From: an uncultured bacterium | GTDB taxonomy: Bacteria; Lernaellota; Lernaellaia; Lernaellales; Lernaellaceae | Assembly (NCBI GenBank): GCA_964534375.1 | Contig: CAZHPN010000007.1 | Coordinates: 66-64,065, forward strand | Reading direction: 5' to 3' | Length of the DNA: 64,000 nt | Shown here: in pieces, positions 5,924 through 32,363 of the stretch | Numbering within the stretch: position 1 is the first letter of the stretch | Layout: each line of letters starts with the position of its first letter | Translations under genes and position numbers: made by a program | Notes under the pieces: model-generated | Told to the model about the DNA's origin: nothing | What the model saw: the letters and a program-made list of their open reading frames with translations, nothing else | Database searches by the model: none

Positions 5924-7990
5924 ATGCCGTTATCGAAAATTCGCAATATGGGCGTGGTCGCCCACATCGACGCCGGCAAGACGACCGTGACCGAGCGCAT
6001 CCTGTTTTACACCGGCGTAACCAAACGCATGGGCGAAGTGCACGACGGCAAAGCCACCATGGACTTCATGAAACAGGAGCAGGAACGGGGCATTACGATC
6101 GCGTCGGCGGCCATCACCTGCAAATGGCAGGGCTGCACGATCAACCTGATCGACACGCCCGGGCACGTCGATTTTACGCTGGAAGTCGAGCGCTCGCTGC
6201 GCGTGCTGGACGGCATGGTCATCGTCTTTTGCGGCGTTTCGGGCGTCGAACCGCAATCGGAGACGGTCTGGAACCAGGCCGAGCGCCACCACGTGCCGCG
6301 CATCGCCTTCGTCAACAAAATGGACCGCGAAGGGGCCGATTTCGCCCACTGCCTGCAAACGATGGACGAAATGCTCGACGCCAAAGCGCTGGCCTTCCAG
6401 TTGCCGATCGGCGCGGGGGCCGATTTTGTCGGGCTGATCGACTTGGTCGAGATGAAGGCCGTCATGTACGAAGAAGAGCGCAAGGTGATCGAGGAGATTC
6501 CCGCTGCGCTGCAATCCGCGGCCGAGGTCGCCCGCGCCAAAATGCTCGACACGCTCAGCGATTTCGACGACGAGCTGGCCGAGCTGTACCTCGAAGACAA
6601 GCCCGTGCCCAGCGAGCTGATCTGGCGGGTCGCGCGGCGCTGCGTGCTCGGCGATTTGCTGACGCCGGTTTTTTGCGGCGCGGCGTACAAGAACAAGGGC
6701 ATCACGCCGCTGCTCGACGCCGTCGTTTACCTGCTGCCGTCGCCGCTCGACGCCGGGGCCGAGGTGGGCGACGACCTGGTCGAGCCGGGCAAAACGCACA
6801 AACGCGCGCCGTCGGAGCACGAGCCGTTTTCCGCGCTGGCGTTCAAGATCATCCATGATCCCTACGTCGGGCAGCAAACCTTCATCCGGATTTATTCGGG
6901 CAAGATTCAGCCGGGCGACAAGATATTCAATCCGCGGCGGAAGCGCACCGAGCGCATCGGCCGCATTTTGCACATTCACGCCCGCGATCGCATCGACGCG
7001 GAAGCGGCCGGCGCGGGGGACATCGTCGCGCTGGTCGGCATGAAGCATACGCTGACGGGCGACACGCTTTGCGACCCGGAAAATCCGCTGATGTTCGAGG
7101 CGATCAAGGCGCCCGCGACGGTGATCTCGGTGAGCGTCACGGCCGACGGCTCAAAGGAGCAGGAAAAACTCGGCATGGCGCTGGCGAAACTGGCGATGGA
7201 AGACCCGTCGTTCCAGGTGACCTACGCCGACGAGACGCGAGAGAAAATCATCTCGGGCATGGGTGAGCTGCACCTGCAGATCATCGTCGATCGCCTGAAG
7301 ACCGACTTCAATGTCGAGGCGATCGTCGGCGCGCCGAAGGTGGCTTACCGGCAGACGATTACGCGCGAGGCGCGGGCCAATTACCGGCACGTCAAGCAAT
7401 CCGGCGGCCGCGGCCAGTTTGCGCACGTGGTGTTCCGCATCGAGCCGAACCCCGACGGCGGCTACGTTTTCGAAGACCACACCAAGGGCGGCGTGATCCC
7501 CGCCGAGTATATTCCGTCGGTCGATGAAGGCATCCAGGACGCGATGGAAAAAGGCCTCGGCTTCCCCGTCGTCGACGTCAAAGTGGTGCTGGAAGACGGC
7601 AACTACCACGCGGTCGATTCGTCGGATTTTGCCTTCAAGATGGCCGGCATCATGGGCTTTAAAGAAGCGTTTGCCGCGGCCGGGCCGACGCTGCTCGAGC
7701 CGATCATGAAAATCGAGATCGCGACGCCCGACGACCATATCGGCGACATCGTCGGCGACCTCGGGCGGCGCCGCGGCCGCATCGCCAGCATGCGCCGGTT
7801 CCGCAAAGGTTCGCAGAAACTGGTCGGCTCGGTGCCGTTGGCCGAGATGTTCGGCTACGCGACGGAGTTGCGCTCGCTCAGCAGCGGCCGGGCGAACTAC
7901 TCGATGGAATTGCTGCGCTATATGCCGACGCCGGCCGACGTCGAAAAGCGCGTGCGCGAGCAAGAAGAGGAGAACGCCCGCCGCCGGTGA
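5924..7990 (+). CDS. fusA: Elongation factor G (stand-alone copy)
   Basis: [51 protein letters not shown]; no rpsL/rpsG/tuf adjacent. Confidence 0.95.
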
Positions 7991-8107
7991 GAAGATAATG
8001 CTCTCACCGGAAGACACGGAGAGCGCGCAGAGGCAGAGATTGATGGGAGGTTTTTCTCATGCATAGCAGGAGAGAGATTGATTTGATTGATCCCGTTGAT
8101 CCTGTCA
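7984..8107. repeat. Hairpin over the fusA stop plus short-period repeat arms
   Basis: CCGGTGAGA-9 nt-TCTCACCGG (7984-8010); ACACGGAGAG/CGCGCAGAG arm; GATCCCGTTGATCCTGTCA (8089-8107) before an A-tract. Confidence 0.7.
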
Positions 8108-8147
8108 AAAAAAATCAACCGACAGCGAGCCGCGCCCCGGTGGGGCG

Positions 8148-26223: not shown

Positions 26224-27588
26224 TTGACGTTGGCGAAGGCGCTGGCCGCCATCGTCGGCGCCGAAAATGCGCTCGACGACTCGGGTTCGCTGGCGGCCTA
26301 CGCGACGGACCACAAAGAGCGCGGCGTGCCGCCGTTGGTCGCCGTGTTGCCGGCGACGACGGCCGAGGTGCAGGCCATCGTGCGGCTCTGCGCCGCGCAA
26401 GGCGTCGCGCTCATTCCCCGCGGCGCCGGCACGGGCACGGTGGGCGGCGCGGTCCCGGAAGCGGCCGCCGTGGTGCTCGATCTGTCGCGCATGAACCGCA
26501 TTCTTGCGGTGGATGCCGACAACCTGCTCGCCGACGTCGAGGCCGGGGTCGTGACCGGCGACTTTCAGCGGGCAATGGAAAAGCAGGGGTTGTTTTATCC
26601 GCCCGATCCGTCGAGCAGCGACACCAGCACGCTGGGCGGCAACGCGGCGACGAACGCCGGCGGATTGCGGGCGATCAAGTACGGCGTCACCGGCGACTGG
26701 ATCGCCGGATTGCAAATCGTGCTCGCCGACGGCCAGCTCATTCGCGCCGGCACGCGGACCCGCAAGGGCGTGGTCGGGTACGATCTGACGCGGCTGTTCG
26801 TGGGCAGCGAGGGCACGCTCGGCGTGATCGTCGGACTGACGCTGCGGCTCGCCCCCAAACCGGCGACGAAGCGGACTCTGTTGGCCGTATTCGCCGACGT
26901 GCGCCAGGCGGGTGAGGCGGTCCTGGCCGTCTTGCGCGGACCCGTGACGCCGGCGGCAATGGAGTTGATGGACGCGTCGGCGCTGGCGGCCGTCCGCAGC
27001 AAGCTGCCCGCACCGATTCCGCCCGGGCACGCGACGCTGCTGCTCGACGTCGACGGCGACGCGGAATCGACCGCGCGCGAGGCGGCCGCGCTCGCCGAAA
27101 TCCTCGCCGGAACGAAAATGGTCGCACTCCGGCGGTCGGCTTCCGAGGAAGAGGCGAAGGCGCTCTGGGCGGCGCGGCGCGCGATCAGCCAGGCGCTTTA
27201 CGAGATTCGCCCGCAGCGCGCGGCCGACGACGTGGCCGTGCCCATTTCGGCGTTGGTCGAGTTGTTCGAGGGCGTCGAACAAATCGCCAAGAAGGCCGGC
27301 GTGCAACACGCGTGCTTCGGCCACGCGGGCGACGGCAACGTGCACGTCAATCTGCTGTACGATCCGGCCGACGACGACGAATCCGCGCGCGTGAAACGGG
27401 CCCGCGAGGAAGTCTTCCGCTTGACGCTGCGGCTGGGCGGCACGCTCAGCGGCGAGCATGGCGTCGGCGTCGCCAAGCGCGCGTTCGTGCCGTGGGAGCA
27501 GCCGGCGGCGTTGATCGATCTGCAAAAACGGCTGAAACGCGCCTTCGATCCGCTCGATATTCTCAATCCGGGCAAGGTTTTTCCGTGA
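26224..27588 (+). CDS. FAD-linked oxidase, GlcD / D-lactate dehydrogenase-like
   Basis: PRGAGTG, YPPDPSS, TLGGNAATNAGG, GSEGTLG, FGHAGDGNVH, SGEHGVG, DPLDILNPGK. Confidence 0.92.
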   Translation: MTLAKALAAIVGAENALDDSGSLAAYATDHKERGVPPLVAVLPATTAEVQAIVRLCAAQGVALIPRGAGTGTVGGAVPEAAAVVLDLSRMNRILAVDADNLLADVEAGVVTGDFQRAMEKQGLFYPPDPSSSDTSTLGGNAATNAGGLRAIKYGVTGDWIAGLQIVLADGQLIRAGTRTRKGVVGYDLTRLFVGSEGTLGVIVGLTLRLAPKPATKRTLLAVFADVRQAGEAVLAVLRGPVTPAAMELMDASALAAVRSKLPAPIPPGHATLLLDVDGDAESTAREAAALAEILAGTKMVALRRSASEEEAKALWAARRAISQALYEIRPQRAADDVAVPISALVELFEGVEQIAKKAGVQHACFGHAGDGNVHVNLLYDPADDDESARVKRAREEVFRLTLRLGGTLSGEHGVGVAKRAFVPWEQPAALIDLQKRLKRAFDPLDILNPGKVFP

Positions 27589-28826
27589 TTTCGCTCGCGG
27601 CCGAAGCGGCGCGCTGCATGCGTTGCGGCAACTGCCGCGCGGTCTGCCCGGTCTGCGAAATCACGCGGCGCGAGAACGACTCGGCCCGCGGCCGGCTGCT
27701 CCGGATTCGCCACGCCCTTGCCGCCGATCGCTGGGCCGCGCGCGACCGCGAGGCGCTCTCGCGCTGCTTACTGTGCGGCCGCTGCACCGAGGTCTGCCAT
27801 GTTCACGTCGAAACGCCGCGCGCGGTGCAGGCGGCGAAAGCGGCGAGCGGCGCCGCCGCCGGTCTGACCGATTTCGCCGCGGAATACCTGCTCGGCGATG
27901 GCGGGCGCCTCGAAACGGCGACGCGCCGTTGGCGCCGGTTCGCCGCCTGGCTCGGACGCGCGACGCCCGACGACAGCGGCCTGCGGCTGCGGTTTTCCCT
28001 GCCCTACGCGGAGGCAGGCCGCTGGCTGCCCAAGCCGCCGGCAATTTCGTACCTCGAAAAGAACACGGGCCGGGCGGCGCGGGGTCGCGAGAAAATTGCG
28101 ATATTCGCCGGTTGCGGCGCCGGGCGATTGTTCGCCGGCGTCGGCGAAGCGCTCGACCGCGTTCTCGCTAAATACGACCTCGTCGCCGCCGTGCCCGAGC
28201 AATCGTGCTGCGGCCTGCCGGCGTGGGGCATCGGCGCCGACCGCGCCGCGAAGACGGCCGCGGCCAATTGGGTCGAGGCGTTTCGCGCCGAAGAGTACGA
28301 CGCAATTCTGACGCCGTGCGCCTCGTGCGCGGCACATTTGCAGAAAATGGGTAAAGTTTCTCTGACAGGATCAACAGGATCACTGGGCCATGACGAAGAC
28401 GAGGCCACGTTCGCGGCGGATGCGGCGCGGTTGGCCGCGAAAGTCGAAGACGTCTTCGCGTGGCTCGCGCGCCGCGAACCTCAGTTCGATCTCGAGGGCC
28501 AGCGCGTCGCCGTCCACTTGCCCTGCCACGCGCGCCGCGGCGTCCGCGACGGAACTGCGGTGTTGCAAGTCTTGGCGCGAAGCGGCGCCGAAATCGTGCA
28601 ATTGCCGGATGAAATCGACCGGCGCTGTTGCGGCATGGGCGGCAGCTTCGGCGCCCGGCATCCGGACCTCTCGCGCGAAATCGCCCGTCCGAAAATCGAG
28701 GCGATGCTCGCCGCGAAACCGGACGCAATCGTCTCAAATTGCACGGGTTGCCTGGTGCAACTGCGTGATGGCGTCGGCGACAATCTCGGCGTTCCGGTCC
28801 GGCACGCGATCGAATTACTTGGGTAG
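27585..28826 (+). CDS. GlcF-like Fe-S oxidoreductase subunit (2x 4Fe-4S plus 2x CCG domains)
   Basis: GTG overlapping the upstream TGA; CMRCGNCRAVCP, CLLCGRCTEVC, QSCCG, HLPCH, RCCGMGG, NCTGC. Confidence 0.9.
   Translation: MISLAAEAARCMRCGNCRAVCPVCEITRRENDSARGRLLRIRHALAADRWAARDREALSRCLLCGRCTEVCHVHVETPRAVQAAKAASGAAAGLTDFAAEYLLGDGGRLETATRRWRRFAAWLGRATPDDSGLRLRFSLPYAEAGRWLPKPPAISYLEKNTGRAARGREKIAIFAGCGAGRLFAGVGEALDRVLAKYDLVAAVPEQSCCGLPAWGIGADRAAKTAAANWVEAFRAEEYDAILTPCASCAAHLQKMGKVSLTGSTGSLGHDEDEATFAADAARLAAKVEDVFAWLARREPQFDLEGQRVAVHLPCHARRGVRDGTAVLQVLARSGAEIVQLPDEIDRRCCGMGGSFGARHPDLSREIARPKIEAMLAAKPDAIVSNCTGCLVQLRDGVGDNLGVPVRHAIELLG
28363..28381 (-). repeat. Copy of the intergenic GATCCTGTTGATCCTGTCA element inside the GlcF-like CDS
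   Basis: Reverse complement matches 8089-8107 at 18 of 19 nt; encodes LTGSTGS in frame. Confidence 0.75.
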
Positions 28827-32344: not shown

Positions 32345-32363
32345 GATCCTGGCTATCCTGTTA
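32345..32363 (+). repeat. Degenerate copy of the GATCCTGTTGATCCTGTCA element
   Basis: GATCCTGGCTATCCTGTTA, 15 of 19 identical. Confidence 0.5.

Follow-up and report, generated by a model that had tools for sequence, protein, structure and literature searches.

An intergenic nonamer repeat arm read in frame within an iron-sulfur protein gene: a rare instance of a familiar type of event

The window analysed here is a stretch of 64,000 nucleotides on one contig (C7) of a 6.3-Mb, 381-contig metagenome-assembled genome from an uncultured bacterium of the family Lernaellaceae. It contains a gene for a (Fe-S)-binding protein of the GlcF/LutA/HdrB type (the host gene) in which a segment of 11 codons is an insertion relative to the homologues and, as judged by sequence comparison, is derived from a family of short intergenic repeats. 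We think it rather probable that the DNA from about position 28350 to 28382 is the relic of one arm of this hairpin family, acquired a single time in an ancestor and kept as a passenger in a linker of the protein. The in-frame repeat arm is genuine, but it is an uncommon example of a type of event already known: it represents a single old event involving one arm, and we found no evidence for routine gene invasion by the family.

The core of the segment is the 19-mer TGACAGGATCAACAGGATC, which matches the consensus of the repeat family at 19 of 19 positions and includes two copies of the nonamer ACAGGATCA (Table 1). Its reverse complement is found, with one mismatch, at 8089-8107. This correspondence (18 of 19 nucleotides) was first pointed out in an earlier note on this DNA and is borne out here, with no match to the 19-mer in 100 dinucleotide-preserving shuffles of the window. 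A T-rich leader is present directly 5' of GACAGG, reading GTTTCTCT in the host-gene copy compared with six or seven T residues in the consensus; interrupted leaders of the same kind (ttttcttg, tttctttg) are found in intergenic copies. Translation of the open reading frame (ORF) at 27585-28826 gives L-T-G-S-T-G-S for the 19-mer, within GKVSLTGSTGSLGHDED and downstream of a CASC motif, as the earlier note had read it. The copy lies 780 nucleotides into a coding sequence of 1242 nucleotides and is not intergenic. Four of the six frames are open through a repeat head, and the frame used is the one that yields Thr-Gly-Ser repeats.

The composition of the segment is clearly different from that of its surroundings. 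The 33 nucleotides at 28350-28382 have a GC content of 42% compared with 69% for the whole host gene, which confirms the AT-richer patch previously remarked upon in this GC-rich gene; the 33-nucleotide segments of the gene with the lowest GC content begin at 28331-28344. Many of the codons are used rarely for their amino acid in the genome as a whole (TCT 2%, TCA 2%, ACA 3%, GGA 5%, GGT 6% and GTT 9%), and the mean relative codon frequency is 0.117 for the 11-codon segment and 0.494 for the host gene.

Alignment with GlcF homologues identifies the segment as an insertion. Between HLQ and FAADAARLAAKV there are 22 residues in the window protein and 11 in the orthologues (53-61% identity), which were drawn from seven genomes within its family, and the 11 codons are missing in 13 of 13 insertion-less family homologues from the protein database. 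The linker from C248 to D289 was measured in 75 homologues. It is 40 amino acids long in the window protein and 55 in one relative; in the other 73 the median is 28 (range 15-35). At two mismatches or fewer, the repeat itself has 71 matches in the window genome, a variant of it occurs in two genomes of another genus (G003 and G006, with 13 and 7 matches, respectively), and five genomes of the family lack it. The insertion is missing from all seven, both the two variant carriers and the five repeat-free genomes. Homologues from genomes without the repeat therefore do not share the loop; a shared loop in such homologues is what the earlier note had singled out as able to overturn its interpretation.

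The nearest relative found, P0118 (represented by contigs L168 and L169 from a peat metagenome), does carry the insertion. The two proteins are 75% identical and the two genes 77% identical at the DNA level (61% at third codon positions). P0118 carries gttttcTTGACAGGATCAACAGGATCAACAAGATCAACAGGATCA in the identical loop, strand and frame, where it reads VFLTGSTGSTRSTGS, with GTTTTCT at the position of the leader. Its head is composed of four units compared with two in the window gene (TGS-TGS-TRS-TGS and TGS-TGS, respectively) and its linker is 26 residues above the baseline. A second array is present on L169 at 6225-6240. In a tree calculated with the loop columns removed, the window protein and P0118 group together with 100/100 support, and their clade is nested among sequences that lack the insertion. 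A protein search seeded with P0118 found no further members of this clade, and a scan of metagenomes for nearer relatives was dominated by generic CCG-protein matches and yielded nothing above 35% identity. The simplest reading of these data would be one gain on the stem of the clade followed by a change in unit number, and the difference between two and four units fits replication slippage of a 9-nucleotide repeat. Since the insertion is common to a relative at 75% identity, it is old, and a recent invasion is not upheld.

The host protein itself fits the GlcF / LutA / HdrB type. It has two CxxCxxCxxxCP ferredoxin motifs, two CCG domains and a GlcD-like partner, and the GTG start of its gene overlaps the stop codon of the upstream gene (GTGA). 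Pfam recognises a 4Fe-4S dicluster domain (Fer4_8) and two CCG domains, and the invariant cysteine columns of the family are all intact. An AlphaFold2 model based on an alignment of 75 sequences has a mean predicted local distance difference test score (pLDDT) of 89.5 and a predicted template modelling score of 0.90. The nearest solved folds found with Foldseek are LutA (9a6l_A, TMt 0.87) and HdrB (5odc_B), and the names among the relatives include Candidatus Lernaella stagnicola, which puts the organism in or close to the phylum Lernaellota. The 11-codon segment lies directly after the first CCG domain, in the most length-variable part of the family. The model shows it as a coil flanked by helices 246-254 and 270-286, in which pLDDT falls below 50 at residues 263-266. 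The segment is predicted to form a disordered loop, in agreement with the check on the model suggested in the earlier note.

Table 1. Coordinates of the features discussed (window positions unless a locus is named)
Feature	Position	Strand	Basis or remark
11-codon in-frame insertion GKVSLTGSTGS	28350..28382	+	Best placement; borders uncertain by a few nucleotides
19-mer TGACAGGATCAACAGGATC	28363..28381	+	Nonamers ACAGGATCA at 28365-28373 and 28374-28382; consensus match exact
Degenerate T-run leader of the repeat head (GTTTCTC)	28356..28362	+	Family consensus T6-7 directly 5' of GACAGG
GlcF/LutA/HdrB-like (Fe-S)-binding protein gene, 413 amino acids	27585..28826	+	ORF; Pfam Fer4_8 and two CCG domains
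GlcD-like FAD-linked oxidase, partner subunit gene	26224..27588	+	Pfam FAD_binding_4 and FAD-oxidase_C
Intergenic solo head with A-run, one mismatch	8089..8114	-	Between convergent genes
Degenerate intergenic head (ATCCTGGCTATCCTGT then TAAAA)	32346..32361	-	Array scan
GxxExxY / PDDEXK_3 genes exactly between inverted ACAGGAT arms	L077 225-641; L147 1318-1689 (-); L122 4011-4343		

The repeat is abundant in the genome. With up to three mismatches TGACAGGATCAACAGGATC has 110 matches, 22 of them exact, and the reversed control has none; the control is equally empty at two mismatches or fewer. We defined an array as two ACAGGAT cores 9 nucleotides apart with at most one mismatch. By this definition there are 89 arrays in 70 loci, and a control pattern gives one. 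Alignment of 68 heads on the core provides the consensus TTTTTTTGACAGGATCAACAGGATCAACgGGATC, with nothing conserved further out. A head consists of a T-run of approximately six to seven residues, then a G, then two to four nonamers. Approximately 15-17 loci are convergent inverted pairs of 95-170 bp with the order T-run, head, inner part, inverted head and A-run, and one full element folds into a perfect stem of 29 bp (z = -8.9 compared with shuffles). A full hairpin is present, for example, at C48 33339-33482. Solo arms are found at 55 of the 70 loci, and these solo heads frequently lie 10-50 nucleotides past a stop codon with the T-run toward the gene.

The full elements have further internal structure. 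The inner parts of many contain mirrored heptamer runs (TGTTCAC/TGTTCGC or CAGTGGT/CAGTGGC; for example, C36:18945-19150, C214:3524 and C46:24712-24869) inside the nonamer arms, and the elements are thus nested arrays of two unit lengths. Arrays of a CACGGAG/CAGAGG-like unit (ggaagacacggagagcgcgcagaggcagag) are present beside some heads (window 7984-8060, C45:7300-7340 and C136:3045-3085), and similar outer inverted arrays flank nonamer hairpins in the planctomycete loci L081, L093 and L137. No Rfam family covers the repeat element. A sub-threshold match to whalefall-1 (25.8 bits; gathering threshold 37) at L012 1671-1721, corresponding to C48:33509-33559 (-), lies directly beside a full nonamer element, and its 3' end enters a ACAGGATC unit. 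Two functional readings of the head were rejected. For a promoter (suggested by TTGACA in the head) there is no -10 box at the proper spacing, and an upstream TATGAT-like motif occurs in only 19 of 68 heads. For an intrinsic terminator the order is wrong on both strands, with the T-run before the stem and the A-run after it.

To place the arrays with respect to genes we used a home-made gene caller (amino-acid-composition seed, negative-frame training and trimmed starts), which gave 4978 genes (86% coding) and reproduces the Pfam-supported genes around the host gene. Most arrays (81 of 89) are intergenic, three touch gene ends and five lie inside genes. One of these five, on C103, matches the conserved NuoA motif MLFILF by chance, three form C-terminal tails, and a single array, that of the host gene, is situated deep within the coding sequence. 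The tail-forming arrays occupy the final 9-18 codons of their ORFs, which end in EIDPVDPVKRTHPFTKK, VLILLILSKNAVIPEVA and EPDEQDER. Their heads (C6:12477-12492, C5:39295-39310 and C172:5288-5303) supply both the tail and the stop codon, and the ORFs are amidohydrolase-like, of unknown function and RsmE-like. A stop-to-stop ORF screen for other copies within genes was also carried out, and all remaining candidates translate to arginine-rich junk. The earlier note proposed that the family can invade ORFs and add peptide loops. For the host gene both the insertion and the loop stand, but as a general claim this is not supported: the genome-wide survey of coding sequences that it recommended leaves one internal case among 89 arrays, together with the three tails.

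The host-gene copy is a solitary arm. No inverted partner was found within 1.5 kb (family membership does not need one), and the local RNA fold around the copy is not significant compared with shuffles (z = -1.27). With only one arm in the host gene there is no long hairpin of the type seen in full elements. The degenerate head at 32346-32361 is convergent to the host-gene copy and lies 4 kb downstream, beyond a MaoC-like gene, a response regulator and a gene for a 693-amino-acid protein; we take the pairing to be a coincidence.

The history that we favour would be as follows. One arm (T-run and two ACAGGATCA units) would have been copied into the linker after the first CCG domain of the GlcF/LutA-like iron-sulfur gene, most likely once, in the common ancestor of the window organism and P0118. 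A whole hairpin may have been inserted, with subsequent loss of the loop and the second arm, or a solo arm may have been copied directly by template switching or ectopic repair. The number of units would later have shifted (two versus four) by replication slippage. As a 9-nucleotide unit corresponds to three codons, the reading frame is kept at any unit number. The 11 residues would be neutral, and the passenger could have survived because the ACA GGA TCA frame (Thr-Gly-Ser) is open and its peptide flexible and hydrophilic, because the site is a length-variable linker predicted to be disordered, and because a single arm leaves the mRNA without a long hairpin.

The nonamer arms are not confined to this genome. 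An exact scan for TGACAGGATSAACRGGATC in one genome per species (596 Gb) gave at least 111 stretches compared with approximately 17 expected by chance (our own arithmetic). Among the matches listed are Planctomycetota, Verrucomicrobiota, Lentisphaeria, Kiritimatiellia, Bacteroidota, Desulfobacterota, Nitrospirota, a bacterium of the candidate phyla radiation (CPR) and Ca. Methanoperedens, and nearly all of those listed have the same organisation: a T-run, two to three ACAGGATNN units, 15-80 nucleotides, inverted units and an A-run. Complementarity between the arms is not maintained at the two variable letters of each unit, and this suggests that the unit may be conserved and not only the hairpin. 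An array of the form TGACAGGAT(G/C)AAC(A/G)GGATC, with T-run leader and inverted partner, is seen in many phyla (loci L057-L167), and the copies from Methanoperedens (L058) and Levybacteria (L065) differ very little, loop included.

In three of the multi-phylum loci the arms bracket a small, nuclease-like GxxExxY gene (TIGR04256, Pfam PDDEXK_3) encoding a protein of 123-138 amino acids (Table 1). Three of 11 GxxExxY genes in three other genomes have ACAGGAT arms, and nearly all the remaining ones lie between mirrored arrays of other 8-9-nucleotide units (CACAGAGG-, CGCAGATG- and CACGAAGG-like). The nonamer arms are therefore one type in a broad class of mirrored tandem-repeat hairpins, which may be empty or hold a small gene. 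In the window genome, mirrored short-unit arrays bracket both of the intact PDDEXK_3 genes and all five of the intact 23S_rRNA_IVP genes, which encode four-helix-bundle proteins (C16:36774-37115, C166:3377-3712, C6:28648-28962, C72:2045-2341, C291:1862-2158, C14:46055-46354 and C42:14920-15216). The bracketing unit varies among these cassettes (GGTTCCG, CAGTAGN, CGAACAG, GGAAAAA, GCGGAAT and GCGAATGCAC) and is not the ACAGGAT nonamer. A PDDEXK_3 fragment (C43:18873-18998) adjoins a four-unit ACAGGAT head.

A number of observations weigh against a single, neutral acquisition. The 19-mer is identical at 19 of 19 positions in the two lineages although the genes are only 77% identical; by our own arithmetic the expectation for this is approximately 0.007 (0.7675^19), and a neutral relic of such age should have drifted. 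The flanks of the head within the loop cannot be aligned between the window protein and P0118, and, with unequal numbers of loop residues on either side of the head, the insertion point is not demonstrably identical in both. Neither a target-site duplication nor an empty-site polymorphism nor a transposase was found. The perfect 19-mer leaves room for gene conversion, for selection on the array or for two separate insertions and, together with the unalignable flanks, it is the reason for keeping these as live alternatives.

The alternative that survives best is that the array has been maintained by selection or homogenisation and is not a neutral relic. It might act as a DNA- or RNA-level site (for example, for a candidate arm-recognising factor), the Thr-Gly-Ser linker might be useful to the protein, or gene conversion from the approximately 70 other copies might reset the array to the consensus. 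This is unlikely in our view. In its favour, the core is invariant at a divergence of 75% protein identity beside flanks that no longer align, and the host-gene copy corresponds exactly to the current genome consensus when only 22 of 110 matches do so. Conservation of the ACAGGAT core in many phyla, at arms whose variable positions are not complementary, also speaks for it and looks like recognition of the unit and not of a hairpin. On the other hand, the chance of six identical synonymous codons is approximately 7% (from 64% codon identity at conserved residues; our own arithmetic), the array is located in a linker predicted to be disordered, its codons rank with the rarest of the genome and 81 of 89 arrays avoid genes. 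We also know of no binding factor for the nonamer arms, which counts against selection.

That the same arm was inserted twice independently, once in each lineage, into a permissive or hot-spot loop is distinctly unlikely. The flanks provide the argument in favour: there are 4 residues before the head in one protein and 18 in the other, and 8 and 3-4 after it, with different flank sequences, while the heads themselves are perfectly conserved and both genomes carry the family (the second array on L169). Against this, loop, strand and frame are identical, the degenerate T-runs are similar (GTTTCTCTG compared with GTTTTCTTG), and the proteins are sisters with full support. In addition, since only one of 89 arrays lies deep in any gene, a coincidence in the same loop is unlikely.

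A more far-reaching proposal, which we consider quite improbable, is that the ACAGGATNN arms are the ends of a multi-phylum mobile hairpin cassette that may hold in its loop a small GxxExxY PD-(D/E)XK or four-helix-bundle gene, the product of which recognises or moves the arms. The arm in the GlcF-like gene would then be a footprint kept at the consensus by recognition in trans. If true, this type of cassette would make up a class of prokaryotic mobile element not described before. The occurrence of the arms in many phyla and their link with GxxExxY cassettes are a more intriguing lead than the single insertion, and the association of the two across phyla makes the origin and spread of mirrored-repeat elements testable.

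Growth of the segment in place, by slippage of a native CTG GCN GGN ACN stretch converging on the repeat, is very improbable indeed: homologues do read (I/V)LAGT at about this position, which resembles SLTGS, but convergence cannot give a 19 of 19 match with a T-rich leader shared with approximately 70 loci and absent from the shuffles and the reversed control, and the codons are the A/T-rich letters of the family and not the GC-rich codons of the homologues, so that the exact match and the codon usage effectively refute it. An assembly chimera or collapsed repeat, a reasonable concern with 381 contigs and short repeats that can mislead assemblers, has a negligible probability, given that the 413-amino-acid protein is also found on three contigs in NCBI/ENA and four in JGI, that all 1242 nucleotides of the host gene are identical in contigs of two other metagenome samples (JGI), that the frame and the conserved cysteine motifs are intact, and that an independently assembled relative has the same feature.

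Mobility of the family is plausible. The earlier note argued for it from the presence of the repeat in an ORF, which is reasonable, but neither a target-site duplication nor an autonomous element was found in this genome. Inspection by eye of approximately 15 full elements showed no direct repeats outside the T-run and A-run. In a search for an autonomous parent, two pairs of heads 0.4-8 kb apart were found in the genome, both around ordinary genes. Full intergenic elements have terminal inverted repeats, as at the ends of transposable elements of the miniature inverted-repeat type (MITEs), and the host-gene copy has one such end only.

The case provides a clear, dated instance of coding sequence contributed by a family of intergenic repeats: one hairpin arm became a linker of 11-26 residues in a redox enzyme that is conserved, and two lineages have kept it. 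The nonamer unit is unusually safe within genes, being frame-neutral at any copy number. A search by sequence of the papers available found no description of the nonamer array.

One close parallel is with the Rickettsia palindromic elements (RPEs), whole palindromes of 100-150 bp that are reportedly present in frame in many protein-coding genes. As with RPEs, a dispersed short repeat is found in frame in a conserved gene, adds peptide at a site predicted to be tolerant and is recognised by comparison with orthologues. Unlike RPEs, the insertion contains one arm (approximately 27 nucleotides of repeat in 33) and no whole palindrome, there is one internal case with three C-terminal tails among 89 arrays and not a large number of genes, and the arm is itself a 9-nucleotide tandem repeat whose copy number differs between lineages. 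Like MITEs, such as the Correia elements of Neisseria, the full copies are of 95-170 bp, have terminal inverted repeats, are numerous and intergenic and sometimes supply C-terminal codons. They differ from MITEs in that no target-site duplication has been seen and no transposase-bearing parent is present in the genome, that the ends are short-unit arrays and that most loci are solo arms. The in-frame variable number tandem repeats (VNTRs) of other genes also show differences in unit number between lineages without a break in the frame. Here, however, the units are imported from a dispersed intergenic family and not from the sequence of the gene itself.

Two further systems share the architecture of the arms. 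In Xanthomonas, inverted arrays of the heptamer GGGAATC are approximately 90% intergenic, form 70-75 convergent pairs and lie near the neighbouring ORF (Rehm et al. 2015, PMC4692102). The nonamer family likewise consists of tandem units of 7-9 nucleotides with many convergent inverted pairs, approximately 90% intergenic near the end of an ORF and with a minority in genes; its unit, by contrast, is a nonamer with a T-run leader, does not form G-quadruplexes and keeps the frame at any copy number, which a heptamer does not. The intervening sequence (IVS) of the Coxiella 23S rRNA has an arm with tandem GACAGAT heptamers, varying in number among strains, and is cleaved by RNase III (Warrier et al. 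2016, PMC4990558). Such IVSs, with their S23p or four-helix-bundle ORFs, resemble the present elements as hairpin cassettes with arms of tandem short repeats that can sit in an essential gene, and the four-helix-bundle and GxxExxY genes between mirrored arrays in the window genome extend the resemblance. The difference is that RNase III removes the IVS from the rRNA, whereas the host-gene arm is translated and has neither an ORF nor a second arm. The host-gene case thus belongs with coding insertions of the RPE and VNTR types, and differs from them as a frame-neutral nonamer array from a mirrored-repeat hairpin family.

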